Positions 38,722-58,714 of a stretch of 64,000 bases of DNA are shown piece by piece; positions within the stretch are counted from its first letter, which is position 1, and each line of letters begins with the position of its first letter. A model generated the notes under the pieces. That model was not told the DNA's origin. It did no database searches and saw nothing but the letters and a program-made list of their open reading frames with translations. Made by a program: the position numbers and the translations under genes. Origin of the DNA: an uncultured Gammaproteobacteria bacterium (GTDB lineage: Bacteria; Patescibacteriota; Microgenomatia; Levybacterales; UBA12049); contig CAZGGU010000003.1 in assembly GCA_964525395.1 (NCBI GenBank), forward strand, positions 2,883 through 66,882. The letters run 5' to 3'.

Positions 38722-39459
38722 ATGGCAGTTGATTTGAGTCTAATCATGCCTGCCTACAAACAAGAAAAAACAATCGTTAAGGATATCAAAGAGATTGATA
38801 AAGTTCTCTCCACGCTTAAATTGAAATACGAAATAATCGTTGTTGTTGATGGGTTTGTCGATAAAACATTCCAAAAAGCCAAAAGAATTAAAAAAAGAAA
38901 AGTAAAAGTTATAGGTTACGAAAAAAATCTAGGCAAAGGATTTGCGATTAAGACTGGTGTTGAAAAAGCAAATGGAGATATTATTGGCTTCATCGATGCA
39001 GGAATGGATTTAGATCCCAGAGAGATAAAATATATGTTAGATATTATGTCCTGGAAAAATGCTGATATAGTTGTTGGAAGTAAACTTCATCCGGATTCAG
39101 TTGTAAATTACCCAATTAGCCGTAAAGTTATTTCATGGTGTTATAGATTGGTAACGCGTTCTTTATTTAATTTAAATATTAAGGATACACAGGTGGGTCT
39201 GAAAATTTTTAAGTATAAAGTTGCTAAGAAAGTTTTTCCCAAAATAGTAGTTAAAGCATTTGCATTTGATATAGAAGTTTTAGCAGTAGCTCACAGTTTT
39301 GGTTATAAGAAAATATATGAAGCACCTATTAGATTAAGATTTCGTCAAGGCAGTATTACGAATACCAATTTTTGGAAAGTGGGCTTTTGGACATTAGTTG
39401 ATACGATGGCCATATTTTACAGAATGCACATCATCAATTACTATAAAAAGAATGGGTAA
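38722..39459 (+). CDS. GT2 polyprenyl-phosphate sugar synthase-like glycosyltransferase
   Basis: LSLIMPAYKQEKTI...YEIIVVVDGFVDKT...GKGFAIKTGV...IGFIDAGMDLDP. Confidence 0.8.
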   Translation: MAVDLSLIMPAYKQEKTIVKDIKEIDKVLSTLKLKYEIIVVVDGFVDKTFQKAKRIKKRKVKVIGYEKNLGKGFAIKTGVEKANGDIIGFIDAGMDLDPREIKYMLDIMSWKNADIVVGSKLHPDSVVNYPISRKVISWCYRLVTRSLFNLNIKDTQVGLKIFKYKVAKKVFPKIVVKAFAFDIEVLAVAHSFGYKKIYEAPIRLRFRQGSITNTNFWKVGFWTLVDTMAIFYRMHIINYYKKNG

Positions 39460-40780
39460 GCTTCTTAAAAATAAATTTTTAGTTATTTTAGTGTCAATTT
39501 TACTTTTGGCATTTTTTCTAAGAGCTTATAACCTGACCAATTCTCCTCGACTTGGTGCAACTTTTGACGAATTCGCTTGGACATGGATAGGAATTAGTTT
39601 AATACAAGAGCATGTTCCTAGCTCTTGGTCTCCGCACCCTCAATACGAAGGACACAGGGAGTATAAGAAATACCTAAATGCAGATTTTTGGATAGTTAAG
39701 CCTTATCTTGAGCATCCACCCTTCTTTGGGCTTGTAGCAGGTTCTTTTGCGATCTTAAACGGGGCAGACGGGATGTTTGATGTGACTCTTGATAAAATTC
39801 GCCCACTGGCTCTTATTTTGGGTTTAGTATCAATTGGCACGTTATTTTTGCTAGTCAGAGAAATATATGATGAAAAAATTGCATTGCTCTCAACGCTTAT
39901 ATATGCCACTATTCCGACTGTGGTTATAGGATCACGCTTAGTCCAGAATGAGAATTTTTTTATCCCGATATATTTATCTGCTTTATTTTTAATTGCGAAA
40001 TATTTTAGAACAAAGAATAAGAAATTAATCTACATGTCAGCGGTATTGTGCGGATTGTTGGTTATTTCAAAAGTTCCTTGGATTGCAGCTTCAGTGGGAA
40101 TTATTTCCATATTGTTTTATAAGCAGAAATATAATTTGGGATTAAGAGTTGGATTGATTGTAGCTCTATTTTTCATTGGATATTTAATTTATGGATTATT
40201 TTTTAATTCTGATTTATTTTTGGGTCTTTGGGGTCTCCAGTTGCAAAGATATGACATTTCATTTAACAGCGTTTACGCTCTGTTTACAGAGCCGTATTTA
40301 ACTGATAGGTACTTCATTGATGGGTGGATATTTTTTGGGTGGTTTGCTTTTATTCTCTTATTGATTAAAGATTATAAAAAGAACATTGTAGTTATCCTTG
40401 GGCTGCTTGCATATTTAGGAATTTTTATTTTTGCAATTCCAAATGAAGCAGGTCATGGTTGGTATAGATATCCGTTTTATCCATTTCTTGCGATTTCTGT
40501 CGCATTATTTATAAAAGAATATTTTAATAAAAACATTCTTTTAACCTTTCTATTTATTTTACTTGTTGGATTGTCGATGCTTGAAGTTTCTTACGGAACA
40601 AAGTTTGGGTTTTCATTTTTAGTTTTTAGAGGATTTTTGTTTGTATGCGCTTTATCACTCTTGCCACTATTTTTTAGAAGTAATAATTTGTTAAAATTCT
40701 CGCACGGACTTAACTTTATATTGCTGATTGGAGTATTTGGTTTAAATGTCCTCGCTGTCCTCACATATCTAGAAATTTAA
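39452..40780 (+). CDS. GT-C-like membrane glycosyltransferase (ArnT-like)
   Basis: TFDEFAWTWIGISL...VKPYLEHPPFFG matches the ArnT YFEKPP-type motif. The track ORF starts at 39398. ATG 39452 (MGKLLKNKF) overlaps the preceding stop by 8 nt and is preferred. Confidence 0.6.
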   Translation: MGKLLKNKFLVILVSILLLAFFLRAYNLTNSPRLGATFDEFAWTWIGISLIQEHVPSSWSPHPQYEGHREYKKYLNADFWIVKPYLEHPPFFGLVAGSFAILNGADGMFDVTLDKIRPLALILGLVSIGTLFLLVREIYDEKIALLSTLIYATIPTVVIGSRLVQNENFFIPIYLSALFLIAKYFRTKNKKLIYMSAVLCGLLVISKVPWIAASVGIISILFYKQKYNLGLRVGLIVALFFIGYLIYGLFFNSDLFLGLWGLQLQRYDISFNSVYALFTEPYLTDRYFIDGWIFFGWFAFILLLIKDYKKNIVVILGLLAYLGIFIFAIPNEAGHGWYRYPFYPFLAISVALFIKEYFNKNILLTFLFILLVGLSMLEVSYGTKFGFSFLVFRGFLFVCALSLLPLFFRSNNLLKFSHGLNFILLIGVFGLNVLAVLTYLEI

Positions 40781-41880: not shown

Positions 41881-42896
41881 AATTATCTAAGCCATCTGTA
41901 ACAATTATTTTAATCACATGGAATGTAGAGAGAACAATAAGTAAAGTTCTTAAAACAATCGAGGAGCAGGAATATCCAAAAAAATTAATTGAGGTTATTG
42001 CAGTTGATGGTGATTCAGATGATTCAACAGTTAAAATATTAAAGAAATCTCCTCTAAAAATAAAAGTTCTGAATAGTCCTTATCCTAAAGATCCTGAGGC
42101 TTGTAGGGGCGTAGGGCTTAAAGCTGCAAAAAACGATATTATCTGTTTTATAGATTCTGACAATTATCTACCTCATAGGAAATGGCTCAGTAAGATGATT
42201 GAGCCTTTTAATAAAGAGCCAAACATAGTTGGAACAGAGACTTTAAGGTTTGCATATAGAAAGTCAGATAATTACTTAAATAGGTATTTTGCTCTTATTG
42301 GTTCGGCAGATCCTGTGGGCCTATATCTTGGGAAAGCAGATAAGCTCTCTTATTTGACTGATAATTGGAAGTTGTATGGAAATGTGATTGGTGATGAAAA
42401 AGATTACTTCGTAGTTAATTTTAGTCCTAATGAATTTCCAACTCTAGGTTCAAACGGATTCTGCGCGCGAAGAAAACTTCTTTTAAAAGGAAAATCAGAT
42501 CCTAAGCACTATTTTCATATTGATGTGCCTTTAGATTTAGCTAGGATGGGTTTTACAAAATACGGTGTAGTAAGAGACGTAATTATTCATGACACAGCTA
42601 CTACTCTGTCAAACTTTTTAAGTAAGAGAGCAAAATACATGAGACTTCATTATCAAAAGAGATCTCGAGATAGAAGATATAAGGTATTTGATCCAAATAG
42701 TCATGATGATTTGCTTAGAATATTCCTATTCATTTTCTTTTCATTAACTTTTGTTCAACCTACTTATGTGGCGCTTAAGGGATTTTTAAAAATTAGAGAT
42801 TTGGCTTGGTTTACTCATCCAATATTTTGTTTTTCCATTATGACAATTTATACATATGCTGTACTAGAGAAATTTATAAAAACAAAATTAAAATGA
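41877..42896 (+). CDS. GT2 glycosyltransferase
   Basis: VTIILITWNVERTI...EVIAVDGDSDDST...FIDSDNYL. Confidence 0.75.
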   Translation: MKLSKPSVTIILITWNVERTISKVLKTIEEQEYPKKLIEVIAVDGDSDDSTVKILKKSPLKIKVLNSPYPKDPEACRGVGLKAAKNDIICFIDSDNYLPHRKWLSKMIEPFNKEPNIVGTETLRFAYRKSDNYLNRYFALIGSADPVGLYLGKADKLSYLTDNWKLYGNVIGDEKDYFVVNFSPNEFPTLGSNGFCARRKLLLKGKSDPKHYFHIDVPLDLARMGFTKYGVVRDVIIHDTATTLSNFLSKRAKYMRLHYQKRSRDRRYKVFDPNSHDDLLRIFLFIFFSLTFVQPTYVALKGFLKIRDLAWFTHPIFCFSIMTIYTYAVLEKFIKTKLK

Positions 42897-44068
42897 TCCC
42901 ACTTATAAAATCAACATTCTATAACGAAACAAAAGTAAAAAAAGATTTGATAAGTTTTATTAAAAAATCTAAAAAATTAAGTTTTGGTAGAGAATGTGAA
43001 AAATTTGAAAAAAACTTTGCAAAGTATCAAGGTAGAAAAAGATGCGTTTTTGTAAATAGTGGAAGTTCGGCAAATTTAGCGCTCATTCAAGCTTTGTTAA
43101 ATCTCAAAAGATTGAAGAGAGGAGATAAAGTGGCTTTTTCAGCATTAACATGGGCAACCAATGCTATGCCGCTAATTCAGCTTGGCTTGGATCCGGTGCC
43201 CGTCGATATTGAAGTAGAAACACTTAATATTTCCAGTCAAAATTTTCTAGAAGTGATTAAAAAAGAAAAAGTAAAAGCATTATTTATAACGAATATTTTA
43301 GGGTTTTGTGGCGATATAGATAAAATTAAAAAAATATGTAGAGAGAAAAATATTATTTTGATTGAAGACAATTGCGAATCTCTTGGCACGATCTATAAAG
43401 GGAAAAAACTTGGTAATTTCGGCCTCGCTTCTACTTTTTCTTTTTATGTGGGACATCATATGTCTACGATAGAGGGCGGATCAATATGCACAGATGATAA
43501 TGAGCTGGCGGACATGCTTTCTCTGGTAAGGGCACATGGTTGGGATCGAAACTTAGATTTTTCAAAACAAGATAAAATTAGAAAAAAGTTCAATGTTAAT
43601 TCCACCTTTTATTCTAGATATACATTTTATGATCTGGGATATAATTTGAGGCCAACAGAAATTAATGGATTTATCGGAAACCAGGAGCTTAGGCATATAA
43701 ATAAGATTGTAAAGCAGAGAAACAAAAATTTCTTAAAGATTGCAAAGGAAATTTATGAAAACGAAAATTTTTATCCTCTTAAATACGATCATATTGATTT
43801 AATTTCAAACTTCGCAATTCCAATTGTTTGCAAGAGTAGGGAAATTAGGGACAGAATTGTTAAGGAGTGTGAGAACAAGATTGAGATTAGGCCGATTGTT
43901 GGCGGAGATTTAACGCTTCAACCATTTTTTAGTAAATATGTAAAAAAGAGATATAAAAATTCTAATGCCAGGCTAGCTCATGAGCAGGGTTTGTATTTGG
44001 GGAATAACCCAGAATTAACAGAAAAAGAAATAAAAATTATTACTAAATTATTATCTAATGCAATATGA
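42893..44068 (+). CDS. PLP-dependent sugar 3-dehydratase of the ColD/E1 type (DegT/AAT class V fold, His replacing the Schiff-base Lys)
   Basis: TFSFYVGHHMSTIEGGSICTDD...VRAHGWDRNL closely parallels the ColD active-site region. NSGSSANLALIQAL PLP region. The track ORF starts at 42806. ATG 42893 overlaps the upstream stop (ATGA). Confidence 0.75.
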   Translation: MIPLIKSTFYNETKVKKDLISFIKKSKKLSFGRECEKFEKNFAKYQGRKRCVFVNSGSSANLALIQALLNLKRLKRGDKVAFSALTWATNAMPLIQLGLDPVPVDIEVETLNISSQNFLEVIKKEKVKALFITNILGFCGDIDKIKKICREKNIILIEDNCESLGTIYKGKKLGNFGLASTFSFYVGHHMSTIEGGSICTDDNELADMLSLVRAHGWDRNLDFSKQDKIRKKFNVNSTFYSRYTFYDLGYNLRPTEINGFIGNQELRHINKIVKQRNKNFLKIAKEIYENENFYPLKYDHIDLISNFAIPIVCKSREIRDRIVKECENKIEIRPIVGGDLTLQPFFSKYVKKRYKNSNARLAHEQGLYLGNNPELTEKEIKIITKLLSNAI

Positions 44069-44766
44069 AGATACTAGAAATAGGATCTGGTCAAGGATTC
44101 CATTTAAGCGTTTTAGCAAGAGATGATTCAAACGAAGTTATTGGCATAGATTTATCCAAAAACGATTTAAAAATCTCAAGAAAGAGGTATCCAAATTTAG
44201 ATTTTAGATATATGAACGCCGAAAAGCTTAAATTTAAAAAAAATACTTTTGATGAAATATATGCGCTCGATGTATTAGAGCATGTCGATAATTTAAATAA
44301 GGTCCTTAATGAAATTACCAGGGTTTTAAAACCTGGAGGAAAATTTATTATTAATATTCCTTACCATAAATCTGAGCGTTGGCTTCTTAAAGTTCGCCCT
44401 ACATTTCATAAAGAAATTCACCATGTCCGAATTTTTGGAGAGAAAGAGCTTGAATCTATCTTAAAAAAGAAAAAATATAAATTGCTTAAGAAGGAAAGAA
44501 AAGAGTTTCTTCAGCACATTGAGCTATATGTCTTATTTAGACGAAAAATAAAATCAAAAACACAATTAAGTATTGGTAGTTGGAGAGACACATATTTTAC
44601 AAAATTTGTTCATGTAGCAGTCCTTTACACGAATCCAGCTGTATTAAAAACTCCATTAGTATATTTTCCAATTTGGATTATTACACTTCCGGTTGGAGGT
44701 GTTATTAACTTTATTGCTAATCAAAAATTTCCAAGATCTCTATATTACATATTTGAGAAAAAATAA
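44065..44766 (+). CDS. class I SAM-dependent methyltransferase
   Basis: ILEIGSGQGFH motif I. LDVLEHV...LKPGGKFII post-I motifs. Confidence 0.7.
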   Translation: MKILEIGSGQGFHLSVLARDDSNEVIGIDLSKNDLKISRKRYPNLDFRYMNAEKLKFKKNTFDEIYALDVLEHVDNLNKVLNEITRVLKPGGKFIINIPYHKSERWLLKVRPTFHKEIHHVRIFGEKELESILKKKKYKLLKKERKEFLQHIELYVLFRRKIKSKTQLSIGSWRDTYFTKFVHVAVLYTNPAVLKTPLVYFPIWIITLPVGGVINFIANQKFPRSLYYIFEKK

Positions 44767-45735: not shown

Positions 45736-46731
45736 ATGAAAAAGAAATTACTCTTATCTATTATTACGCCTACATTAAACAACCAGAAAGATATTAAGAG
45801 ATTTCTGAATTATATTAATTCTCAAAAAAAAGAAACATTCAATACTGAAATAATTGTTTTTGATGGTGGATCATCTGATAGAACCGTAGAGATTGCAAGA
45901 AAACTTGGTGCAAAGGTATATGAAAACCCTTTTGTTTTAGCTGATTCTGGAGTTAATTTAGGAATTAAAAAAGCTAAAGGTGAAATCTTGATGATTCTTG
46001 CAGTGGATAATATTTTTTATGAAAAAGATTCACTTCAGAAAATGGTTAATGTTTTCAAAGATAAAACTATTATGGCAGCATTTCCCATACATTCAAGTTT
46101 AAAAAGTGATTCGCTATTTACGAAGTACATAAATAATTTTACTGATCCATTTAATAATTTTGTTTATGGTTACGCAGCAAACGGAAGAACATTTAAAAAG
46201 GTATTTAAAACACTTGAGTCAAATGAACTATATGAAATTTATGATTTCTCTTCAAGTAGTGAAAGGCCTTTAATTGCTTTTGCTCAAGGTTTTACAATCC
46301 GTAAAGGTTTTACAAGAAATAAAGATAGAAGTCACGATGATGTATTGCCGGTAATTGATTTGATAGTGCAAGGAAAGAAAATAGCATTTGTTTATTCTGT
46401 GCGACTGCATCATCACACAGTGCGAAATTTAAGTCATTTTATTAGAAAACAGGCTTGGGCTACTTTAAATTCTCTTCAAAGAAAAAAATATGGAATATCC
46501 TTTCGAAGGGTTTACTTGTCTGAAGGACAGCAGCTTCGGATGAATTTCTGGCCATTTTATTCACTGCTCATTTTTCCAGTAGTCATCAGGGCTTCTTACA
46601 AGCTTGTTAGAGATCGTGATAAATTATGGCTTTTAGATCCTATTTTGTGTATTATTTCTGCTTACACAAGCTTAGTAGTAGGATTATCATATTTATTTAA
46701 TAAAAAAATGGCATTTAAGAGACAAAAATGA
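45736..46731 (+). CDS. GT2-like glycosyltransferase
   Basis: LSIITPTLNNQKDI...EIIVFDGGSSDRT. The DXD equivalent is less clear. Confidence 0.65.
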   Translation: MKKKLLLSIITPTLNNQKDIKRFLNYINSQKKETFNTEIIVFDGGSSDRTVEIARKLGAKVYENPFVLADSGVNLGIKKAKGEILMILAVDNIFYEKDSLQKMVNVFKDKTIMAAFPIHSSLKSDSLFTKYINNFTDPFNNFVYGYAANGRTFKKVFKTLESNELYEIYDFSSSSERPLIAFAQGFTIRKGFTRNKDRSHDDVLPVIDLIVQGKKIAFVYSVRLHHHTVRNLSHFIRKQAWATLNSLQRKKYGISFRRVYLSEGQQLRMNFWPFYSLLIFPVVIRASYKLVRDRDKLWLLDPILCIISAYTSLVVGLSYLFNKKMAFKRQK

Positions 46732-47660
46732 AAACTTTTATTCACCCTTCAGCGATTGTAAAAACAAAAAAAATAGGTGATAAAACTACAATTTGGGCAT
46801 TTTGTAATATTTTAGAAAAAGCCTCAATTGGAGAGAATTGTAATATTAATGATAGGGTTTTCATTGAAAATGATGTTGTAGTAGGAAACAACGTGACAAT
46901 AAAAGTCGGTGTGTCTCTGTGGGATGGATTAAGAGTGGAAGATAATGTTTTTATTGGCCCGAATGCTACTTTTTCTAACGATATTTTCCCAAGAAGTAAG
47001 AAATATCTTAAGAAATATCCTCAAACGGTACTTAAGAAGGGATCTTCTGTCGGAGCAAATTCAACAATTCTCCCAGGGATTACAATTGGTGTAAATTCAA
47101 TGGTAGGGGCAGGTGCAGTTGTAACGAAAGATGTTCCTCAGAATGCAATAGTTGCGGGAAATCCGGCAAGGATAATTGGATATATTGATGCTAAAAATGA
47201 GAAGCTTAAGCAAGTCAATGCTGGAAATGGTCTCAAGAAAAGTAAAAGCCACATAAGAGTTAAAGGTGTTAAGGTCTATTCTCTTCCAGAATTTAGTGAT
47301 ATTAGAGGAGATTTAATTGCTGGAGAATTTCTGGATCAGATCCCTTTTTTAATCAAGAGGTTCTTTATTGTTCACAATGTGCCTAATCAGGAGGTAAGAG
47401 GAGAGCACGCTCATAAAAAATTACAACAATATCTTATCTGCCTGAGTGGCTCTGTAAGTGTAATCGTAGACGATGGTAAAAAATCGGCTGAGATATTGCT
47501 TTCTCCGCTTCAGACAGGGCTGTACATAGGACCAAAAGTGTGGAGCGTGCAGTACAAGTTTAGCAATAACGCTTCTTTGCTTGTTTTGGCTTCAGAAAAG
47601 TACAAATCGGAGGATTATTTAAGAAATTATAATGATTTCTTGGACTTTATTAAAAAATGA
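46728..47660 (+). CDS. WxcM-like bifunctional protein: N-terminal hexapeptide-repeat sugar N-acetyltransferase + C-terminal FdtA-like cupin (dTDP-4-keto-6-deoxyhexose 3,4-ketoisomerase)
   Basis: LbH repeats VVGNNVTIKVGVSL...IGVNSMVGAGAVV. C-terminal RGEHAH motif and cupin strands as in FdtA. Confidence 0.75.
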   Translation: MKTFIHPSAIVKTKKIGDKTTIWAFCNILEKASIGENCNINDRVFIENDVVVGNNVTIKVGVSLWDGLRVEDNVFIGPNATFSNDIFPRSKKYLKKYPQTVLKKGSSVGANSTILPGITIGVNSMVGAGAVVTKDVPQNAIVAGNPARIIGYIDAKNEKLKQVNAGNGLKKSKSHIRVKGVKVYSLPEFSDIRGDLIAGEFLDQIPFLIKRFFIVHNVPNQEVRGEHAHKKLQQYLICLSGSVSVIVDDGKKSAEILLSPLQTGLYIGPKVWSVQYKFSNNASLLVLASEKYKSEDYLRNYNDFLDFIKK

Positions 47661-48763
47661 AAATTAATTATCTTGATATTAAAAGGGCTCATAATTTTAT
47701 TCTTCCTGAGTTAAATAATTCACTTGAGAAGGTAATAAAAAGTGGATTGTTAATTTTAGGTAAAGAGCTAGAGGGGTTTGAGAGAAAATACGCTAAGTTT
47801 ACAGGGACTAAGTATGCTTTAGGAGTTGCTAATGGCTTAGATGCGCTCATACTTTCGTTAATGGCTCTTGATGTTAAGGAAGGAGACGAAGTTATTGTTC
47901 CATCCAATACATATATTGCTACAGTTTTAGCAATTTCTAGAGTTGGTGCAAAACCAATTTTAGTTGAACCAAACAAAGAAACGTATAATATTGATCCGAT
48001 GGAGATAGAGAAAAATATTTCTAAGAAAACAAAGGTAATCATTCCAGTTCATTTATTTGGTCAAGTTGCACAAATGGATGCAATTATGAAGATTGCTATA
48101 AAGCATAAGTTATTTGTCGTGGAGGATAATGCTCAGTCACACGGAGCAAAATATATGAATAAAATGGCAGGTAGCTTTGGGCATATTAATGCTACAAGTT
48201 TTTATCCTGGAAAAAATTTAGGTGCATTAGGGGATGGGGGGATGATCACAACTAATAGTAAATCTTTATATGAAAAAGTGAAGATAATGCGCAATTATGG
48301 TTCAAAAATAAAATACTATAATGAGATCAAAGGTTATAATTCTCGACTGGATGAACTTCAAGCTGCTTTTCTGAAAATAAAACTTAATTATTTGAAATCG
48401 AATAATAAATTAAGAAAAATGAAAGCTGATAAATATCTCTCTGAGTTAAAAAATATAGGAGATATTATTTTACCCATGACAGATTCAAATTCTACGCATG
48501 TTTATCATATATTCAACATCAGAACTAAAAAAAGAGATTCATTGAAGAAGTACTTAGATCAAAATAAGATTGGAAATTTGATTCATTATCCAGTCCCCCC
48601 TCATCTTCAGAAAGCTTATGCCGAATTAGGATTTAAAAAAGGAGATTTCCCCATCGCAGAAGAACTTGCTAGTACTTCGATAAGCCTACCGATTTATCCA
48701 GAATTAACCGATAATGAGCAAAATTTTGTTATATTAAAAATAAAGGAATTTTATGAAAAATAG
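47657..48763 (+). CDS. DegT/DnrJ/EryC1/StrS-family sugar aminotransferase (FdtB-like, PLP-dependent)
   Basis: GVANGLDALILSL...DNAQSHGA...SFYPGKNLGALGDGG, with the Schiff-base Lys present. Confidence 0.85.
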   Translation: MKINYLDIKRAHNFILPELNNSLEKVIKSGLLILGKELEGFERKYAKFTGTKYALGVANGLDALILSLMALDVKEGDEVIVPSNTYIATVLAISRVGAKPILVEPNKETYNIDPMEIEKNISKKTKVIIPVHLFGQVAQMDAIMKIAIKHKLFVVEDNAQSHGAKYMNKMAGSFGHINATSFYPGKNLGALGDGGMITTNSKSLYEKVKIMRNYGSKIKYYNEIKGYNSRLDELQAAFLKIKLNYLKSNNKLRKMKADKYLSELKNIGDIILPMTDSNSTHVYHIFNIRTKKRDSLKKYLDQNKIGNLIHYPVPPHLQKAYAELGFKKGDFPIAEELASTSISLPIYPELTDNEQNFVILKIKEFYEK

Positions 48764-49718
48764 TCCCTTAGTTTCAATTGTTATTCCGACATATAATAGA
48801 AAAATACTTGTTGAAAGATTGATTAAGAGCATATTGAAAAGTACCTATAAAAATCTTGAAATAATTGTGATAGATGACGCATCTGCTGATAATACTCTCG
48901 AATATATATCTTCAAAATTTAGAAAAAATAAAAATATAAAAATTTTTAGAAATAAAATTAATCAGTTTGCTGCAGGAAGTAAAAATATAGGTCAATCAAA
49001 AGCCCAAGGAAAATTTATTGCATTTATAGACGATGATAATGTTGTGGATCAACAAATGATAGAGAAGCTTGTAAATGTTTTGTTAAAAAATGATGTTGTG
49101 GGCGAGGTGGGTCCAATTAACTATAATTTTAATAAAAAAAAATTGGTACTTCTAACTAGATCTACTAGAAATATGTGGACGACCAAAACTAACCATTTAA
49201 GAACTTTTAAGCCGTTTGGGGCTCTTAAAGAATGGGAAGCAGATGATATACCAAATGCTTTCATGGTCAGAGCAGATGTAGTAATTAAAAATAAAATTAA
49301 ATTCAGACCAAAATATGGAATTATGTATGAAGAAAGCGATTATGCATATAGAATCAGAAGGGCTGGCTTTAAAGTTTTGATGGTACGTGAGGCTAAGATA
49401 TATCATGACATTGAGGATTCAAATTCTAAAGAGAATAGTAAAGATTACCTGTATCATTTTATGGAAGATAAAAGAAGACCATTTGTTTTTGCAAGAAACA
49501 GAGTAATTTTTCACTCCTTATATTCAACCCCTTTGCAAAAATTCGTAATTTATTTATTTTGGATTTGGTTTTTCACAGCTTATTACGTTTATAAATTTTT
49601 ATTTTATAATGGATATGGCAATTTTAAGTTTAAAAATAAATTATCTGCAGCAATTAGCTATATAAAAGGGACTTTTAACGGGTTTGGTTTTGCACTTCTG
49701 AAAACCTCTAAAATATGA
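48753..49718 (+). CDS. GT2 glycosyltransferase
   Basis: VSIVIPTYNRKILV...EIIVIDDASADNT...FIDDDNVV. Confidence 0.8.
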   Translation: MKNSPLVSIVIPTYNRKILVERLIKSILKSTYKNLEIIVIDDASADNTLEYISSKFRKNKNIKIFRNKINQFAAGSKNIGQSKAQGKFIAFIDDDNVVDQQMIEKLVNVLLKNDVVGEVGPINYNFNKKKLVLLTRSTRNMWTTKTNHLRTFKPFGALKEWEADDIPNAFMVRADVVIKNKIKFRPKYGIMYEESDYAYRIRRAGFKVLMVREAKIYHDIEDSNSKENSKDYLYHFMEDKRRPFVFARNRVIFHSLYSTPLQKFVIYLFWIWFFTAYYVYKFLFYNGYGNFKFKNKLSAAISYIKGTFNGFGFALLKTSKI

Positions 49719-50527
49719 AGAAATTCAATTATTCTAAGCAGTCAATTTTTAAGTTTTATTTCTTTTATTTATTTTATAAACTATTAATCCCATTTGAAGT
49801 AAAAAAAGGAAAAATAAATATTATTGTAGCGGAGTTTATATGGGTTAGTAGTAAGTTATTTAGATTTAAACCATTCCTCTTTAAAAATTTTACCTCTAAT
49901 TATTATGAAACAAAATTTGGGAAATTTTACATAAATCCAGACTTGATTAGTACAATTGCTGCCTCTCCTTCTTTTGAGAGGAAAGAGATTGAGATTCTTT
50001 TAAAAATGATAGAGTCTGACGTTTCGAATAATAAGAAAATATTATTTATTGATGTTGGGGCATTTTTTGGTCTATATACCGTATTGGTTGGTAATAGATA
50101 TAAAAAATATAAGAATTTGGACATCATGTCATTTGAGCCAGACACATTTTATCTGTCAGATGCCACATTTAATTTAATCAAAAAAAATATAAAGGTTAAC
50201 AATATAAAAAATTCAAAGTTATATCATTTTGGTTTGGGATCAATCAATTCAAACAAAAAAAATAAGAAAGGAATAATTACCAAAAAATTAGACACAGTTT
50301 TAACTAAAAAGATACTAGTTAAATACGATTCAGTATATATAAAAATAGATGTGGACGGTTCAGAAAAAGATGTATTATTGGGTGCAAAGAGCTCTATAAA
50401 AAATGCCAAGGAGATTACACTTCTTATTGAAGATTTTGTTGACCAAAGAATAGTTAAGTATTTATCGAAAGATTTTGAATTTATCTCAAAACCTTCTAGT
50501 TATAACAGTTTTTGGAAAAAGAAATGA
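49715..50527 (+). CDS. FkbM-family methyltransferase (putative sugar O-methyltransferase)
   Basis: IDVGAFFGLYTVLVG...FEPDTFYLSDATFNL resembles the FkbM domain. Confidence 0.55.
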   Translation: MKKFNYSKQSIFKFYFFYLFYKLLIPFEVKKGKINIIVAEFIWVSSKLFRFKPFLFKNFTSNYYETKFGKFYINPDLISTIAASPSFERKEIEILLKMIESDVSNNKKILFIDVGAFFGLYTVLVGNRYKKYKNLDIMSFEPDTFYLSDATFNLIKKNIKVNNIKNSKLYHFGLGSINSNKKNKKGIITKKLDTVLTKKILVKYDSVYIKIDVDGSEKDVLLGAKSSIKNAKEITLLIEDFVDQRIVKYLSKDFEFISKPSSYNSFWKKK

Positions 50528-52812
50528 AGAAGCTATTTTCTCTAAAGTTTTTCAATCTTTTAGCAATAATTTTTATTTTAGCGCTCCCATACTATTTATT
50601 TGATGGAAAGCTATTTTTAGGGGGAGATGACACCAGGCTTCTTTATTCTTATCCAGTTGAATTTGTGAAGAATATAACTTTTTTCTCATGGCATAATGTT
50701 TCAACGACAGGCATTAGTGCAGCAGATCAATATATACTGCCATTTTTATCAGTTTGGGTACTTCTTTCAGCAATCATTCCCTCAAAGTTAATTTTGGCTT
50801 ATCTCGCATTCTCACTCCCTGTGATAGTGGGCATGATTGGTTTTCAAAAATTAGTCAGAGAACTTTTTGAATTAGAAAATAATAATGTCGTGATTTTTCT
50901 TGGTAGCTTATTTTATGTATTTTCTCCAATTCTGATTCAAGATCAGTATTTTATTTTTCTCACAGCAATTTGGCTCATAGGGTTAATTCCTATTAATATC
51001 TATTTATTTATACGGTATTTAAAAACTTCTGATTTTAAATATGTATTTTTTGCCGCCACATTTTGTATATTCTTTTTAGGAATATTATATTCACTTCCAT
51101 GGGTTTTTGGAACATTTTTACCTCTATTTCTTGGACTGATTTTTGTTTCTATATTTTTCAGGAAAAAAGATATTTTATTTTTTATTAAAAAACTATTTAT
51201 TTTTTGTGGATTTATAGGATTAACTCAGTTTTTTTGGATCGCAAATTTTGCATTATCTTATTTTTCGAAGAGTTCAAATAGTTTTGCGCAAAAATTTGTT
51301 TCTCAAGATTTTCTTGACACGTTTACTCCGACTGTATTTACTACTGCAACAGGGAGCATATTTTACCCAATACTCAACTTATTTCATCGACAAATAGCAT
51401 TTGATTTTGAATGGACATTATCAGGAATATTTAATAATTATTATGATAAAACGTATATCTTTAACGTCGTTTTCATTTTTGTTCTTTTTATTGGTCTTTT
51501 ATACTTTCGAAAATATTCAAATAAAAAGAATCAGATTATCTTTATATTTTTATTCATAAGTTTTCTTATCTCTTTGTTTTTATTCACGGTTAACATAGGA
51601 CCTTTAAAAGATTTGTTTACATACTTGAGATATGTTCCCGGATTTATTATGTTTAGGAATTTCTATGACAAATTTGCAATTGGCTACATTCTAATTTACT
51701 CCTTATTAATAACTTACTCATTGTTAATAGTTCATTTGAAATTTAATATAAAATTTTGGCTAGTATTTGGAATATTTTCGCTAGCGATATTCTTTAATTT
51801 TTTACCAATTAAGCAAACTATAAATTCTCCTCTGTGGAAAACTAAGTCAATTTATCGTGTGATAAATATTCCAAATGAATATTTGGAAACTATGAAATTT
51901 GTTAATTCGGAAATTCCTTCTACGAACACAATTTTAAGTGTTCCTTTTGGAGCATCGATCTACACTGTGATAAAAGAAGATAAATCAAATAACGTTTATG
52001 TGGGTGCTTCTCCTGTCAGGATTTTTAGCGGAGTAAATGACATTTCAGGTCATTATTCATTTAATTTTAGTGATCAGGCAAATACAATAGACGCTGTATT
52101 TGTAGATAGAGAATTTGAAAAACTAAAGAAAATTCTTTTTGAATATAACATTAATTATATTCTGGTCACCAAGAATTTACCTGAAGAAGTAAAGAGGGCG
52201 AAGTGGCTTTATGATGAGCAAATGCTTTCTGTTCAGAATCAGGAATTTATAAATGGCATTGCAAATAAAAAGATATACACAAGCGATAATAAAAATTATG
52301 AGATTTATGATCTGAAAAATAAAAATACGATTCTTTCATCAAAAAACATTACATATCAAAAAGTAAGTCCAGTGAAGTATAGATTTTTTATTAGAAATAT
52401 AAATTCACAAAATTTAGACTTTCATGATACATATCATGGTGACTGGAAGATTTTTATCCAAAAAAATCCAAATTTAAATTGGTGTAAAAATAAAAAGTTT
52501 CTCAAAAGTGATGTAGTCGAATGCCAAGAAGCAAAAAAACTATTTGAAATTAATGATTTGAAGTATTTCTTTGAGAAACCAGTTTTTGATGACAAACATA
52601 GTACTGTTTTTGGATACGGCAATAGATGGAGTATAAACAATAAAGAAATTTCTACTAACTATAATCAAGATTTTTATGTAAAAAATAAAGATGGAAGTAT
52701 TGATGCAGAATTCGTTCTTTATTTTAAGCCGCAAACCTATTTTTATTATGGTTTTATTTTCTCATTCGTAGTCTATTTATTAGGAGCAATTTATGTCATC
52801 AAAAAAAGATAA
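50512..52812 (+). CDS. large polytopic membrane protein with C-terminal extracytoplasmic domain (GT-C-like, uncharacterised)
   Basis: 766 aa. About 14 TM in the first 450 aa, then a hydrophilic domain and a terminal TM. Confidence 0.5.
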   Translation: MEKEMKKLFSLKFFNLLAIIFILALPYYLFDGKLFLGGDDTRLLYSYPVEFVKNITFFSWHNVSTTGISAADQYILPFLSVWVLLSAIIPSKLILAYLAFSLPVIVGMIGFQKLVRELFELENNNVVIFLGSLFYVFSPILIQDQYFIFLTAIWLIGLIPINIYLFIRYLKTSDFKYVFFAATFCIFFLGILYSLPWVFGTFLPLFLGLIFVSIFFRKKDILFFIKKLFIFCGFIGLTQFFWIANFALSYFSKSSNSFAQKFVSQDFLDTFTPTVFTTATGSIFYPILNLFHRQIAFDFEWTLSGIFNNYYDKTYIFNVVFIFVLFIGLLYFRKYSNKKNQIIFIFLFISFLISLFLFTVNIGPLKDLFTYLRYVPGFIMFRNFYDKFAIGYILIYSLLITYSLLIVHLKFNIKFWLVFGIFSLAIFFNFLPIKQTINSPLWKTKSIYRVINIPNEYLETMKFVNSEIPSTNTILSVPFGASIYTVIKEDKSNNVYVGASPVRIFSGVNDISGHYSFNFSDQANTIDAVFVDREFEKLKKILFEYNINYILVTKNLPEEVKRAKWLYDEQMLSVQNQEFINGIANKKIYTSDNKNYEIYDLKNKNTILSSKNITYQKVSPVKYRFFIRNINSQNLDFHDTYHGDWKIFIQKNPNLNWCKNKKFLKSDVVECQEAKKLFEINDLKYFFEKPVFDDKHSTVFGYGNRWSINNKEISTNYNQDFYVKNKDGSIDAEFVLYFKPQTYFYYGFIFSFVVYLLGAIYVIKKR

Positions 52813-53755
52813 AAAAATAAAATATTTAATCTGCGCCACTATTTTTGGTTTATTAATTTTTTGGTGGAGCGCATCACTACTTTTTAACGAGAGTATAAGT
52901 TTTAAAGTATTAAGATACCATCATGAATTGTCTGGAGATGTTAATTCAAAAATATTAAAAGGAGATAAAATTAATAGTGAGTTTTATTCTAAGAGGCAAA
53001 ACTTAGGAATAGTAAATATCAAATTCAACAGGTATGTTAAACCTGATTTTGAAAAAGAAGATCAAATTATTTTCAGAATTAAAGAAAAAGGAATGAAAGA
53101 CTGGTTATATGAACAGAAGTATCAATCAGGGCTTTTCCAAGATTCGCCAATTTTTCCATTTGGATTTCCAATAATTACTAACTCAAGCGATAAAGACTAT
53201 CAAATTCAAATAGAATCCTTAAAAGGGAATAACTCTAATGCTTTAAGTTTAAGAAATAAAGATTATGAGGTGGATTACTTTAATACAAATCAAGATATTA
53301 AAAAGAACGTTCCTGAATATTTAATTCTAAAATCAATAAATTCTGTTTTAGATTTGAATTTCTTAATTTATTCGAGTGTTTTTTTGATTCCTTTATTCAT
53401 TTTTCTTTTTTTAATTTCTTTATTTAGGAAAAAAAATAAAAAAAACAAATATTTGCTGTTTGTCTCAATATCTTTAATTTTTATTGATATATTTATTGTT
53501 CCCGTTTATACATTTGGAATTCTGATAATTTCTATTTTAGTTTGGCTTATTAATATGAGAGTTAATAAAATAAGTAGTAATTTTAACTTTACATTTGCAT
53601 TCATTTTGTTTCTCATCTGGATTTTCTTGAAACTATTGAACATAGACGTATATACATCAAAGCTTAATATTTGGACATATGTATTTTTATCCATTGGCGC
53701 AGGAACGCTTTTATTAGAAAGTAAATTAAAAATAAGAAAAAATGCAAAAATTTAA
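52793..53755 (+). CDS. hypothetical membrane-anchored protein
   Basis: N-terminal TM, 180-aa hydrophilic domain, C-terminal 4 TM. Confidence 0.45.
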   Translation: MSSKKDKKIKYLICATIFGLLIFWWSASLLFNESISFKVLRYHHELSGDVNSKILKGDKINSEFYSKRQNLGIVNIKFNRYVKPDFEKEDQIIFRIKEKGMKDWLYEQKYQSGLFQDSPIFPFGFPIITNSSDKDYQIQIESLKGNNSNALSLRNKDYEVDYFNTNQDIKKNVPEYLILKSINSVLDLNFLIYSSVFLIPLFIFLFLISLFRKKNKKNKYLLFVSISLIFIDIFIVPVYTFGILIISILVWLINMRVNKISSNFNFTFAFILFLIWIFLKLLNIDVYTSKLNIWTYVFLSIGAGTLLLESKLKIRKNAKI

Positions 53756-54488
53756 TTACGAAAATAAACAATATCTTAGTAAATTGAATGATTTAGGGGA
53801 AAGTTATTATTCTAAATACATCTCGTTTATTAAGTTCTATTCGAAAAGAAAAGATAAAATTTTGGACGTAGGGTGTGGAACTGGGACAGTACTCTTTAAT
53901 TTGCAAAACAAAGGTTTTGTAAATCTTTATGGTATTGATGTTTCTCGGATGTTTATTAAGGAAGCCCAAAGGAAGAAGCTAAAAAATTTGAAATCTTTTT
54001 CAGGTAAAAAATTTCCTTATAAAAATGAATCATTTAATGTCGTAGGCTCATTTAATGTCTTAGAGCATACCCAGAATCCAAACTTTTTCATAAGCGAACA
54101 GATAAGGCTTCTTAAACCGGGTGGTAAATTAATAATAGCCTGTCCCAATTTCCTGTCGATCATGCTTATCAATAATTGGCATCCAAGATTGAGAGGTTTT
54201 AGGCAAAAATCAAAAAATTTTGTTTGTGTCCTTAAGAAAGTGCTTGATAAAAATTCTGAATTTGAAAAAATAAAACCGATTAAAATGAAAATCTTTAAAT
54301 ATGATAGCGATGCGATAGTCATTACTAATCTTATCGATTTAAAAAGACAGTTGAAAAAAGAAAAATGTGAAATAATATACGAGAGTGGTTTTATAAAAAT
54401 GGATTCATATATAGTTAAGATTTTGAATTTGGTTCCCTTGATAAGATATGTAAGTCCCTCCTGCTTTATAGTCGCTCAAAAAAAATGA
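53742..54488 (+). CDS. class I SAM-dependent methyltransferase
   Basis: ILDVGCGTGTVLFNL motif I. LKPGGKLIIACPNF. Confidence 0.7.
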   Translation: MQKFNYENKQYLSKLNDLGESYYSKYISFIKFYSKRKDKILDVGCGTGTVLFNLQNKGFVNLYGIDVSRMFIKEAQRKKLKNLKSFSGKKFPYKNESFNVVGSFNVLEHTQNPNFFISEQIRLLKPGGKLIIACPNFLSIMLINNWHPRLRGFRQKSKNFVCVLKKVLDKNSEFEKIKPIKMKIFKYDSDAIVITNLIDLKRQLKKEKCEIIYESGFIKMDSYIVKILNLVPLIRYVSPSCFIVAQKK

Positions 54489-56497
54489 AAAATATTTCTA
54501 ACTTGATTCAGCTCTCAATAATCATCGTACTTATTTTAATCGTATTTAGAGCATGGATTTTTGGCAGTATTATTTCAGCGGGGGATAATTGGTATTACTA
54601 TCCTTCGATGTACAGTAATCATTTTCTAAATCCTTACTCTTGGTATACTCAAGCAACGGCAAATGGATTGGGCGGTCAGGGATTCGCTTATATAAATACA
54701 TACATTGTTGTTGGATTCCTTTTAGAAATTGCTAAATTATTTCATCTTTCTTGGGATCTGACTTCAAAATTAGGCTTATATATTCTCTTTTTAATCATCT
54801 CCTCAATTTCATCAATATTTTTAATTAAAAAACTTTTTCCTGAAAATAGAGTTTGGATACTTGCCCCATTTATTTTTATTTTTAATACCTATGTACTAAT
54901 GACAGTGGGCGGGGGACAAATAATAACCGCACTTTCATATTCACTTGTTCCATTTTCTATTTATTCTGTAATTTCACTAATTGATCTAGAGAAGAGAAAT
55001 CTAAAATTAAAATTTGTTTTTTTAACATCAATATTATTTTTTCTTCAAGCAATTTTAGATTTAAGAATTGCATTTGTCACAACTATTGCTGTTTTTGTCT
55101 ATTTAATAATTTCTTTTATTCAAAATAAATTTAAATTAAATTTAATTAATTCTATTTACTTCGTATGTGCATTTTTATTGTTTGCATTGATGTGTTCTTA
55201 CTGGTTAATTCCAATTCTTTTATATGGAATAAATCCAATCGAACAGTTAGGCGTAGATTATAGTTCAGCGACAATTGTAAAATTTTTAAGTTTTGCAAAA
55301 TTAGAAAATTCATTAGGACTTATGCATCCATATTGGCCAGAAAATATTTTTGGAAAAATTGGATTTATGAAAGCAGAATTTCTATTTCTTCCAATTGCGG
55401 CATTTTCCTCATTATTATTTCTTGATAAAGAAAAAAGAAAATATATTTTATTTTTTGCACTGATTGGGCTTTTCGGTATATTTTTAGGAAAAGGAGCGAG
55501 CGAGCCATTAGGTGGTGTTTATTTATTTTTATTTGAACACGTCCCAGGGTTTCAATTATTCAGGGATTCAATAAAATGGTATGTTTTAATTGCAATCTCA
55601 TTTTCAATTCTCATTCCTTATTCCCTAGACAAGATTTCTTTATTGATTGAAGAAAAAATTAATAAGAAAAACTTTTACTTATTAGTTGAAATTCTATTTA
55701 TTATTTACATTTGCATTTTTCTTAGACCTGCTTTTATGAATCAATTAAGTGGAACATTTAAGGAAAGAATAATTCCTAAAGAATATATTTCTCTAAATAA
55801 TTTTTTATCATCTCAAAATAATTTTTACAGAACGCTTTGGGTTCCTAATACTATGCTGTTAGGTTATTATTCAAATATGAATCCTCAGATTTCAGCAAGA
55901 GATTATTTCAAAGAATATTCCCAAGAAAAATTGTATAAAGTTATTGCGAAAAATGAATCAAATAACTCTTTAGATTATGCTTCTGTTAAATATGTGATTA
56001 TTCCGAAAGATACAGAAAAGGAAATATTTTTAACTGACAGAGAATTTGATAAAGAAAAATATAAAAATGCAGTTAAATCTTTAGATAAAATTTCATGGTT
56101 GGAAAAGGTGAAAGCATTTGGAGACATAGTTGTTTATGAAAATAAAAATTATAAAGATCATATTTGGTGTGATTGTGATGCAAAGATTAATTATCAATTT
56201 GTAAATCCAACTTTATATAAAATTTCAGTTAAAAATTATAAGAAAGGGGATAAAATAATTTTCTCCGAAGCATATGATTCTTTATGGACAATTAATGATG
56301 GTAAAAATATAAAAAATTCAGAAAGATTTGAAAAAAGCCTTAACAGTTTTATATTGCCTGGAGATGGAAATTATACGATTGAATATTCTGCGCAAAAGTT
56401 GGTAGATAAAAGTTTAATAATAAGTTTAATCGCAGTATTTTTAACAATTAGCGGCCTAACATTTTTAGTAATAAAAAATAAAAATGAAAATAAATAA
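54485..56497 (+). CDS. large polytopic membrane protein with extracytoplasmic domain (GT-C-like, uncharacterised)
   Basis: 670 aa. About 13 TM, then a soluble domain and a terminal TM. Architecture parallels 50512-52812. Confidence 0.5.
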   Translation: MKNISNLIQLSIIIVLILIVFRAWIFGSIISAGDNWYYYPSMYSNHFLNPYSWYTQATANGLGGQGFAYINTYIVVGFLLEIAKLFHLSWDLTSKLGLYILFLIISSISSIFLIKKLFPENRVWILAPFIFIFNTYVLMTVGGGQIITALSYSLVPFSIYSVISLIDLEKRNLKLKFVFLTSILFFLQAILDLRIAFVTTIAVFVYLIISFIQNKFKLNLINSIYFVCAFLLFALMCSYWLIPILLYGINPIEQLGVDYSSATIVKFLSFAKLENSLGLMHPYWPENIFGKIGFMKAEFLFLPIAAFSSLLFLDKEKRKYILFFALIGLFGIFLGKGASEPLGGVYLFLFEHVPGFQLFRDSIKWYVLIAISFSILIPYSLDKISLLIEEKINKKNFYLLVEILFIIYICIFLRPAFMNQLSGTFKERIIPKEYISLNNFLSSQNNFYRTLWVPNTMLLGYYSNMNPQISARDYFKEYSQEKLYKVIAKNESNNSLDYASVKYVIIPKDTEKEIFLTDREFDKEKYKNAVKSLDKISWLEKVKAFGDIVVYENKNYKDHIWCDCDAKINYQFVNPTLYKISVKNYKKGDKIIFSEAYDSLWTINDGKNIKNSERFEKSLNSFILPGDGNYTIEYSAQKLVDKSLIISLIAVFLTISGLTFLVIKNKNENK

Positions 56498-57461
56498 TTC
56501 TGAAATTTTAATTACAGGGGGTGCTGGATTTATTGGTAGTAGTCTTGCTGATGAATTAGTAAAGCAAGGAGCAACGGTTACCATTCTTGATGCAATGATT
56601 GCCCCATATGGTGGCAATATGTTTAATATCAAACAAATAAAAAATAAAGTTAATTTTATTAAAGGAGATGTGAGAAATCACAAAGCTGTGGAAAAAGCAG
56701 TCAAAGGAAAAGATTTTGTTTTTCACCTGGCTGGACAGACAGGCAGAAATATTTCTATGGAGAACCCTATTCTAGATACCGAAATAAATATAATAGGGAC
56801 ATTAAATGTAATTGATGGTATTAGAAGGCAAATGAAAAAACCTAAACTTATTTTTGCTGGAAGTAGGGGAGCTTGTGGAATGCCAACATATTTACCAGTT
56901 AATGAGAAACATCCAGATAACCCTAGGGATGTCTATGGAATTAATAAAATGTCAGCTGAAAAAATGTGTCTACTTTTAGGAAAAGAAAACGATTTTGAAG
57001 TAGTATCCTTGCGACTTAATAATGTTTACGGACCAAGATGCCAAATAAAAAGTAACCATTATGGAACTATTAATTTGTTTGTTTCTTACGCATTGCAGGG
57101 AAAAGTAATGCCAATTTATGGAGATGGTTTACAAACAAGAGATTATGTGTACGTAACAGACGTAGTGAATGCTTTTATTAGTTCTATGAATCCAAAAGCA
57201 AATAATAATATGTATTATGTGGGAACTGGAGTTCCTACTTCGTTACTGGAAATAGTAGGGATAATTCAAGAAAAGATTCCTGATGCCAAATTTAAAAAGG
57301 TACCTTTTCCAAAAGAACTTAAAAGTGTAGATTTTCCAGAGTTTTATTCCGACTCATCGTTTATAGAAAAACAACTTGGTTGGAAACCAAAAATTAATAT
57401 AGAAAAAGGTATTGAAGAGACTATAGTGTTTTATAAAGAGAACTTGAAATACTATTTATGA
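56484..57461 (+). CDS. NAD-dependent nucleotide-sugar epimerase/dehydratase (extended SDR)
   Basis: ILITGGAGFIGSSLADELVKQGATVTILD. Catalytic YGINK. Confidence 0.8.
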   Translation: MKINNSEILITGGAGFIGSSLADELVKQGATVTILDAMIAPYGGNMFNIKQIKNKVNFIKGDVRNHKAVEKAVKGKDFVFHLAGQTGRNISMENPILDTEINIIGTLNVIDGIRRQMKKPKLIFAGSRGACGMPTYLPVNEKHPDNPRDVYGINKMSAEKMCLLLGKENDFEVVSLRLNNVYGPRCQIKSNHYGTINLFVSYALQGKVMPIYGDGLQTRDYVYVTDVVNAFISSMNPKANNNMYYVGTGVPTSLLEIVGIIQEKIPDAKFKKVPFPKELKSVDFPEFYSDSSFIEKQLGWKPKINIEKGIEETIVFYKENLKYYL

Positions 57462-57682: not shown

Positions 57683-57708
57683 AGTCCCGTTAGGATTTTA
57701 ATGGGACT
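57683..57708 (+). other. hairpin AGTCCC-N14-GGGACT containing the conserved TGAGTCCCGTT element
   Basis: The same 11-mer occurs at 21699-21709, also immediately 5' of a GT4 gene. Confidence 0.35.
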
Positions 57709-57747: not shown

Positions 57748-58293
57748 ATGAAAATCGGAATTGATATTAGCCAGCTTGCTTATCCAAATACAGGCGTAGC
57801 TAATTATCTCGAAAATCTTATTGATTCATTGTTGAAGGTGGACTCAAAGAATGAATATGTTCTTTTCTATTCATCGATGAGAAAAAATTTACAATTTACA
57901 ATTTTCAATTTTCAATCAAATCCAAATGTTTCAATTAAAAAATTTAAATTACCACCGACTTTATTAAACCTGTTATGGAATAAATTACATATTCTGCCAA
58001 TTGAAAGAATTATTGGTCCAGTAGACTTGTTTATCACTTCCGACTGGACAGAGCCTCCTGCGAAAGCTAAGAAGGCTACGATCATTTATGACATGATTGT
58101 TTATAAAAATCCTGAAGAAACAGCCAAAAGTATTGTAGAGACTCAAAAGAGAAAACTAAAATGGGTTAAGAAAGAATCAGACATAATATTTGCCATCTCT
58201 AAATCTACTAAGAAAGATATTGAAGAAATATTAGGAATTGATTCATCAAAAATTAAAGTAATTTATCCAGGGCTGAATAAATTAACTAGTTAA
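57748..58293 (+). pseudogene. GT4 glycosyltransferase N-terminal-domain-only fragment (C-terminal catalytic half missing)
   Basis: MKIGIDISQL... ends at ...KVIYPGLNKLTS, the inter-domain linker position in the intact neighbouring GT4 genes. Confidence 0.45.
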
Positions 58294-58310
58294 CACATTA
58301 ACTTGTTAAC
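58282..58310 (+). repeat. tandem palindromic repeats TTAACTAGTTAAC and TTAACTTGTTAAC upstream of the four-helix-bundle gene
   Basis: Read directly. The second copy is repeated exactly at 58724-58736. Confidence 0.8.
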
Positions 58311-58324
58311 GCGTTAATAACTTT

Positions 58325-58714
58325 ATGAAGATTACCAAATATGAGGAGTTGGAAATTTGGAATCTCAGCATCGAGATTGCATTAAAAGTTTATGAATTAA
58401 CTAGCAAGGGGAAATTCATGAAAGTTTATGGCTTAAGAGATCAAATTCGGCGTGCATCTGTTTCAATCAGTTCAAATATTGCAGAAGGTTTTGAAATGAA
58501 TAATAACAACGATTTTATTAGATTTTTGAGAATAGCTAAGAGTTCGGCTGGAGAAGTTAGAAGTCAACTTTATATTTCGTATGAGCTTGGTTATATTAAT
58601 TCAAGAGAATATAATGAATTAACCGATAAATTAATAACTTTATCCTCACAGAACGGAAAATTTATTAGTTATCTTTTGAGCAAGAAGAATAATAAAGAAT
58701 TTTTGAACCGATGA
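58325..58714 (+). CDS. four-helix-bundle protein (so-called 23S rRNA intervening-sequence protein family)
   Basis: 129 aa. YEELEIWNLSIEIALKVYELTSK...DQIRRASVSISSNIAEGF...SAGEVRSQLYIS typical of that family. Confidence 0.75.
   Translation: MKITKYEELEIWNLSIEIALKVYELTSKGKFMKVYGLRDQIRRASVSISSNIAEGFEMNNNNDFIRFLRIAKSSAGEVRSQLYISYELGYINSREYNELTDKLITLSSQNGKFISYLLSKKNNKEFLNR

Follow-up and report, generated by a model that had tools for sequence, protein, structure and literature searches.

Pathways to 3-acetamido-3,6-dideoxyhexoses linked to deoxythymidine diphosphate (dTDP) are organised differently in the bacteria where they have been described. In Aneurinibacillus thermoaerophilus they rely on FdtA, FdtB and FdtC, with the isomerase and the acetyltransferase as separate proteins, and Thermoanaerobacterium thermosaccharolyticum also uses three separate proteins, QdtA, QdtB and QdtC (4O9E, 3FRK and 3FS8), to make the gluco product Qui3NAc. 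The ketoisomerases WlaRA and WlaRB of Campylobacter jejuni are standalone, unfused enzymes, described together with WlaRG (5TPV, 5TPU and 5U1Z). FdtD of Shewanella denitrificans reportedly unites the third and fifth pathway steps in one protein. The corresponding structure, 4MZU ('WxcM-like protein'), is from Chantigian, Thoden & Holden 2013 (cited as ref 26 in PMC9271549), and wxcM-type O-antigen genes are described as encoding an acetyltransferase fused to an isomerase, which partners fdtB downstream of rmlA/rmlB (PMC2905691). Here we analysed a 64,000-nucleotide stretch of DNA (the window; contig CAZGGU010000003.1, positions 2,883 to 66,882) from a Levybacteria-like bacterium of the candidate phyla radiation (CPR), in which a gene for such a fusion (46728-47660, + strand, 310 amino acids (aa)) is followed by a gene for an FdtB-like aminotransferase (47657-48763, +, 368 aa). 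We estimate a probability of roughly 85% that, of the five activities needed to make a dTDP-3-acetamido-3,6-dideoxyhexose, this pair supplies three, and that the sugar is probably incorporated into a surface glycan.

The first gene encodes a predicted bifunctional dTDP-sugar 3,4-ketoisomerase / N-acetyltransferase of the fdtD/wxcM type, an assignment that draws on its Hexapep and FdtA domains and on a full-length alignment to FdtD. Among all PDB sequences its best match was 4MZU, at 355 bits (E 3.1e-105), with a single collinear alignment pairing residues 5-305 with residues 2-299 of FdtD. The two proteins are 54.5% identical overall, their acetyltransferase domains 63% and their cupins 52%. 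They share the order of beta-helix then cupin, a similar length (312 aa in FdtD, 310 here) and an identical RGEHAH motif. They differ in the inter-domain linker, which is three residues longer here, in a glycine at the position of our Ser273, and in their hosts, FdtD coming from the Gammaproteobacteria and not from a CPR bacterium. A sequence-only reading of this stretch had proposed a WxcM-like fusion at 46728 whose C-terminal domain is an FdtA cupin, and both parts of that proposal were borne out. Pfam FdtA (PF05523, 'WxcM-like, C-terminal') matched residues 180-308 at 159.8 bits (E 3.9e-47, against a cutoff of 23 bits) and covered profile positions 2-130 of 131. The N-terminal half scored 71 bits with Pfam Hexapep, in three Hexapep stretches plus Hexapep_2.

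The N-terminal domain (residues ~1-160; 46728..47207, +) is predicted to be a left-handed beta-helix that acts as an acetyl-CoA-dependent N-acetyltransferase at step 5 of the pathway. It matched 7S43, an N-acetyltransferase of Helicobacter pullorum, at 191 bits, WlbB at 126 and QdtC at 72, and scored lower with the enzymes that act on 4-amino sugars (38 bits with PerB and 34 with VioB). Enzymes of the PglD/PerB/VioB type have a catalytic histidine and an N-terminal globular lobe (PMC9271549). In the fusion the beta-helix begins at about residue 5, with no such lobe in front of it. These comparisons support assigning the domain to the sugar N-acetyltransferases of the FdtD/WlbB/QdtC type, and by homology the donor would be acetyl-CoA and the acceptor the C3 amine of a dTDP-sugar. 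In an alignment of 118 full-length homologues of the fusion, Asn84 and 20 further positions of this domain were invariant.

The C-terminal cupin (residues 180-310; 47265..47657, +) is the predicted dTDP-4-keto-6-deoxyglucose 3,4-ketoisomerase, step 3 of the pathway, and would convert its substrate to dTDP-3-keto-6-deoxyhexose. Searched alone, it matched the FdtD cupin 4ZU4 at 144 bits and FdtA (2PA7) at 112, followed by WlaRB at 102, 7N67 at 99, QdtA at 93 (90-93) and WlaRA at 71. It is 45% identical to FdtA, and QdtA and QdtC are both clearly more distant from the fusion than FdtD is. The WlaR ketoisomerases are homologues as well. The RGEHAH motif noted in the sequence-only reading occupies residues 224-229, and in the alignment with His49 and His51 of FdtA that it suggested as a check, His227 and His229 fall on both histidines of the FdtA motif RGFHAH. 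The codons for His227-Ala228-His229 lie at 47406..47414 (+). The FdtA variants 2PAE, 2PAK and 2PAM differ from the wild type at exactly these two histidines, so the counterparts of His227 and His229 are the catalytic pair that has been studied. Arg193, Arg224 and His227 were invariant in 118 of 118 homologues, and His229 was present in all but one.

The second gene (47657..48763, +) would encode a pyridoxal phosphate (PLP)-dependent dTDP-3-keto-6-deoxyhexose 3-aminotransferase of the fdtB/qdtB type, the enzyme predicted for step 4. It matched DegT_DnrJ_EryC1 (PF01041) at 366 bits (E 2.4e-109) and carries the motif SFYPGKNLGALGDGG, which contains Lys186 (codon 48212..48214, +). In a gapless alignment SFYPGK186N pairs with SFYPAKN of QdtB and the lysine is conserved, making Lys186 the predicted Schiff-base lysine for PLP. 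The best solved relatives were QdtB (3FRK, 379 bits over residues 1-363), 7N63 (355) and 7B0D (344), followed by WlaRG (342) and DesV (339). QdtB, WlaRG and DesV are C3 aminotransferases. WbpE (241 bits) and NtdA (186) scored between these and the enzymes that aminate C4, namely perosamine synthase (185), ArnB (136-143), WecE (137), PseC (103) and PglE (96), and no NCBIfam equivalog model for a 4-aminotransferase reached its cutoff with this open reading frame (ORF). The grouping with C3 rather than C4 sugar aminotransferases, at 339-379 bits against 96-185, is thus supported by sequence comparison. The sequence-only reading had called for a lysine-containing DegT enzyme of FdtB type directly behind the fusion and was right on both counts. 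Together with the domain and histidine comparisons this grouping supports the core of that reading, a cassette for a 3-acetamido-3,6-dideoxyhexose.

The fusion is common. Among 5.8 billion proteins searched, 6,414 homologues reached E <= 1e-20, and all of the best 120 of these have the Hexapep plus FdtA architecture, at lengths of roughly 300-430 aa. Among the best 120, one is named 'fdtC fdtA' and another comes from Candidatus Levybacteria bacterium RBG_16_35_11. A genome scan added full-length relatives, 52-59% identical, from Paenibacillus, Cohnella, Anoxybacillus, Lysinibacillus, Psychrobacillus and a deltaproteobacterial metagenome-assembled genome (MAG). In all eight of the loci that we compared, from CPR bacteria, Firmicutes and the deltaproteobacterial MAG, the next gene downstream of the fusion is a DegT gene. 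In Anoxybacillus pushchinoensis (L014, 9965-15257) the fusion and DegT genes are followed in unbroken order by those for RmlA, RmlC, RmlB and RmlD, a compact and complete cassette for a dTDP-3-acetamido-sugar and rhamnose. The position of the Anoxybacillus pair beside these four genes is direct comparative evidence for the fusion family acting on an intermediate derived from dTDP-glucose.

Other arrangements were seen as well. A Methanocellaceae MAG has a standalone FdtA gene with DegT on one side and, on the other, a 355-aa ORF starting with MKGILLAGGHGTRLRPLT, which by eye appears RmlA-like from its motif. In Dysgonomonas sp. (L018, 8096-8971) a 291-aa protein consists of two tandem FdtA cupins, unlike the acetyltransferase fusion. 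The first of these has HAF for HAH and an arginine at the equivalent of QdtA position 97, and the second has the complete HAH pair. A copy of the fusion that is at least 90% identical (P0002, TXI33637.1) was deposited on a 7.9-kb contig as 'MAG: isomerase [Niabella sp.]'. The Niabella label is probably a binning error, with Lon homologues and synteny pointing to Candidatus Levybacteria, and the name 'isomerase' is incomplete. Of the Lon protease homologues at 76-84% identity, all those with an organism name belong to Candidatus Levybacteria, Microgenomates or Patescibacteria, which places the window in a Levybacteria-like CPR bacterium.

These data suggest the following pathway. RmlA and RmlB, encoded elsewhere in the genome, would make dTDP-4-keto-6-deoxy-D-glucose, and the C-terminal cupin of the fusion would then shift the keto group from C4 to C3, with His227 and His229 as proton shuttles. 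The PLP enzyme would use Lys186 to transaminate C3, giving a dTDP-3-amino-3,6-dideoxyhexose, and the N-terminal beta-helix of the fusion would acetylate the 3-amine using acetyl-CoA. A single polypeptide would therefore catalyse the non-consecutive steps 3 and 5, as in FdtD of Shewanella denitrificans. The same three chemical steps are carried out by FdtA, FdtB and FdtC in Aneurinibacillus, and the pathway logic is that of the Qdt system. WxcM of Xanthomonas campestris and the enterobacterial proteins of the wxcM/fdtC type are likewise bifunctional and act with fdtB on the product of RmlA and RmlB (PMC2905691). The glycosyltransferase family 2 (GT2) genes that flank the pair probably encode the enzymes that would add the sugar to a glycan on the surface of this Levybacteria-like bacterium. 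Seen in the sequences themselves are the identities of the domains, the catalytic residues, the placement in families and the conserved order of the genes; the activities of the enzymes, the configuration at C4, the acyl donor and the glycan that accepts the sugar are inferred.

The first two enzymes of this pathway are the part that the window does not provide, and the sequence-only reading was right that the cassette lacks RmlA and RmlB. No ORF of at least 120 aa in the window has the NTP_transferase domain expected of RmlA, and a six-frame tblastn of the 64 kb with Anoxybacillus RmlA returned nothing at E <= 1e-3. RmlB was not found in the window either. The short-chain dehydrogenase/reductase (SDR) encoded at 34269-35237 is GalE, with 390 bits where the cutoff is 262. 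The SDR at 56484-57461, which had been put forward as an upstream enzyme, scored 151 bits with the RmlB model (cutoff 365) and 149 with that for GalE, and its closest solved relatives are UDP-glucose 4-epimerase and UDP-glucuronate decarboxylases. The 4,6-dehydratases of the RmlB family require an Asp-Glu pair, but this protein has G-S-R-G-A-C-G in place of the S-T-D-E-V-Y-G of genuine RmlB. The sub-cutoff score and the missing Thr-Asp-Glu signature rule it out as RmlB.

The ORF at 797-1336 had also been offered as a candidate, as an RmlC-like cupin. The family assignment stands, at 146 bits and slightly below the equivalog cutoff of 155.75, but its proposed role does not. RmlC, a 3,5-epimerase, is a competitor for the shared intermediate, and so this ORF is unable to replace RmlA or RmlB. 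Its presence does suggest that the organism makes dTDP-4-keto-6-deoxyglucose. Weighing against the proposed pathway is the lack of RmlA and RmlB both in the window and in the 10-kb flanks of four related CPR loci (L031-L034), so that the supply of substrate has to be assumed. The enterobacterial O-antigen clusters differ in this respect, having rmlB-rmlA directly upstream. A further point against the pathway as drawn is that the acyl donor could be other than acetyl-CoA.

The configuration of the product at C4 is a separate question, and here dTDP-Fuc3NAc (galacto) is moderately favoured over dTDP-Qui3NAc (gluco) because the residues linked to stereochemistry are FdtD-like. FdtD is said to have served as a stand-in for the galacto enzyme FdtA, and Thoden et al. 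in 2015 are said to have tied Tyr17 and Arg97 of QdtA to the gluco outcome and to have built a Y17R/R97H variant of QdtA to mimic FdtA. At the positions equivalent to 193 and 273 our protein has arginine and serine, compared to arginine and histidine in FdtA, arginine and glycine in FdtD, and arginine at both in WlaRB, which we take to be a gluco enzyme. Arg193 is therefore shared with FdtA and FdtD, where QdtA reportedly has a tyrosine. Position 273 is glycine, serine, alanine, threonine or asparagine in the 118 fusion homologues and never the arginine of WlaRB, nor the histidine of FdtA. FdtD is also the closest characterised relative both of the whole protein (355 bits) and of the cupin (144 bits).

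It is possible, although we consider it distinctly the less probable outcome, that the same pathway operates with an isomerase that retains the gluco configuration at C4, giving dTDP-Qui3NAc as in the QdtA/QdtB/QdtC system. Several observations point this way and weigh against the galacto assignment. After FdtD and FdtA, the cupin is nearer to WlaRB (102 bits), 7N67 (99) and QdtA (93) than to WlaRA (71), which is named as a fucose ketoisomerase. The top solved match of the aminotransferase is QdtB of the gluco pathway, at 379 bits, and there is no FdtB structure for comparison. Galacto and gluco enzymes do not appear to be separable by whole-domain similarity, and the stereochemical assignment is consequently a weak one.

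A reading in which the pair acts instead on a UDP-linked 2-acetamido sugar, in the manner of WlbB/WbpD with WbpE and leading to a 2,3-diacetamido sugar, is very improbable. It would agree with the name 'UDP-2-acetamido-3-amino-2,3-dideoxy-glucuronate N-acetyltransferase' given automatically to several homologues by JGI, and with the relationship of the N-terminal domain to WlbB and of the aminotransferase to WbpE. The scores, however, are 355 bits to FdtD versus 126 to WlbB and 379 bits to QdtB versus 241 to WbpE. The acetyltransferase is also joined to an FdtA cupin that is intact and keeps its two catalytic histidines, a domain for which the WlbB pathway has no use. Neither a UDP-N-acetylglucosamine 6-dehydrogenase nor a 3-dehydrogenase was seen among the ORFs of the window, and the Anoxybacillus pair is flanked by rmlACBD. 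We rejected the WlbB-type reading on the score ratios and this linkage to rmlACBD. The public names 'isomerase' and 'UDP-2-acetamido-3-amino-2,3-dideoxy-glucuronate N-acetyltransferase' are accordingly corrected to FdtD-type bifunctional enzyme.

Least probable of all is that one of the fusion's two domains survives as a catalytically inactive remnant, its activity coming from a separate enzyme; the Dysgonomonas tandem protein does show that degenerate cupin copies exist, but both domains here match solved active counterparts over their full length and retain the histidine pair, Arg193, Arg224 and the invariant N-domain residues, and the window holds no standalone FdtA and only one other hexapeptide acetyltransferase (59879-60430), of the WcaF-like O-acetyltransferase type.

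The FdtD-type fusion and its FdtB-type partner point to a 3-acetamido-3,6-dideoxyhexose on the surface of a Levybacteria-like CPR bacterium; elsewhere this sugar is known from O-antigens and S-layer glycans. The pair comes from an uncultivated lineage and belongs, as an unremarkable example, to an enzyme family that is well characterised. Its importance beyond annotation is small, and the neighbouring membrane proteins that belong to no recognisable family, together with the many paralogues of GT-C glycosyltransferases, are of greater interest.

The fusion and aminotransferase genes overlap by 4 bp (ATGA), and an identical ATGA overlap joins the fusion to the GT2 gene upstream of it (45736..46731, +, Glycos_transf_2), which is thereby translationally coupled. 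At its 3' end the aminotransferase gene overlaps by 11 bp with a second GT2 gene (48753..49718, +, Glycos_transf_2 at 118 bits). Given these successive overlaps, the four genes form a single, tightly packed transcription unit. The position of the upstream GT2 is kept in L031, L032, L033 and L034 at 54-62% identity, and that of the downstream GT2 in L031, L032 and L034 at 57-67%, and both are candidate users of the sugar product. A scan for promoter-like sites gave 77 against 97 expected, showing no enrichment, and found no promoter internal to the pair. The only strong terminator-like hairpin between 41 and 58.5 kb, with an 11-bp stem and a T-rich tail, lies at 57683-57708 (+), just past the SDR gene that ends at 57461, which suggests that the operon of the pair ends there.

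The pair sits within a glycosylation locus of approximately 50 kb, which starts at 10678, extends past 61302 and has every gene on the same strand. Besides many GT2 and GT4 glycosyltransferases and GT-C/PMT_2 paralogues, it encodes a YfhO protein, GalE, a ColD-like dehydrase and two flippases. The block around the pair is kept in L031, L034 and the Levybacteria genome L032, and L033 has part of it. It consists of GT2, fusion, DegT, GT2 and a methyltransferase, followed by proteins of ~770 and ~320 aa, a methyltransferase and a protein of ~670 aa. In the window these three large proteins are of 766, 320 and 670 aa (50512-52812, 52793-53755 and 54485-56497, all +). No Pfam family matched any of them at E <= 1 except for a 14-bit hint of PTPS_related in the 670-aa protein, and counterparts with 34-55% identity accompany the FdtD/FdtB pair in L031, L032 and L034. 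The three may be proteins of glycan assembly or export that are as yet uncharacterised. A more specific and rather speculative idea is that the three membrane proteins of this conserved module (50512-56497) are a new kind of apparatus for polymerising, exporting or attaching a surface glycan of CPR bacteria that contains Fuc3NAc and is possibly methylated. Were this true, the FdtD and FdtB enzymes themselves would remain conventional.

A gene for a ~417-aa protein with Methyltransf_13/Methyltransf_14 domains lies downstream of the pair in L032 (4940-6199) and L034 (13871-15121) and is absent from the window. We take this protein to be of the nucleotide diphosphate-hexose C-methyltransferase type, and these Levybacteria-like relatives may make a C-methylated derivative.

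Upstream of the pair, the ORF at 42890-44068 (+) encodes a ColD/WbdK-like 3-dehydrase dependent on pyridoxamine phosphate, confirming the ColD-like enzyme of the sequence-only reading. It scored 213 bits with 2GMS (WbdK/ColD), has a histidine in place of the PLP lysine (SFYVGHHMS) and is 81-83% identical to its counterparts in L031 and L034. Its true start is likely the ATG at 42890 rather than the listed TTG at 42806, since its relatives are 389-390 aa long. A gene for an S-adenosylmethionine-dependent methyltransferase (44065-44766) comes right after it. Neither a GDP-mannose 4,6-dehydratase nor a ColC-like partner for the dehydrase was seen in the window.

Towards the end of the locus a 181-aa ORF (57748-58293, +) corresponds to the N-terminal domain of a GT4 alone. 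Next come a '23S rRNA intervening sequence protein' ORF (58325-58714, +; PF05635, 120 bits) and a complete 376-aa GT4/GT1 gene (58752-59882, +). The region 57748-59882 looks like a glycosyltransferase remnant or duplication beside an inserted gene for a four-helix bundle. Paralogues of the GT-C type (PMT_2, PMT, PTPS_related and YfhO) are unusually dense in the window, at 12633-17545, 22815-25052, 26672-33386, 39398-40780 and from 61301 to the window end. They include tandem runs of three or four genes of ~550 aa and a long membrane ORF that passes the window end. At the other end of the locus a tRNA-Glu(CTC) gene (10574-10648, +) lies 30 bp 5' of the first gene, and the glycosylation locus has a G+C content of 0.26-0.34, down from 0.36-0.40 in the flank (6-12 kb). 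The tRNA gene and the drop in G+C may mark the boundary of a variable island.

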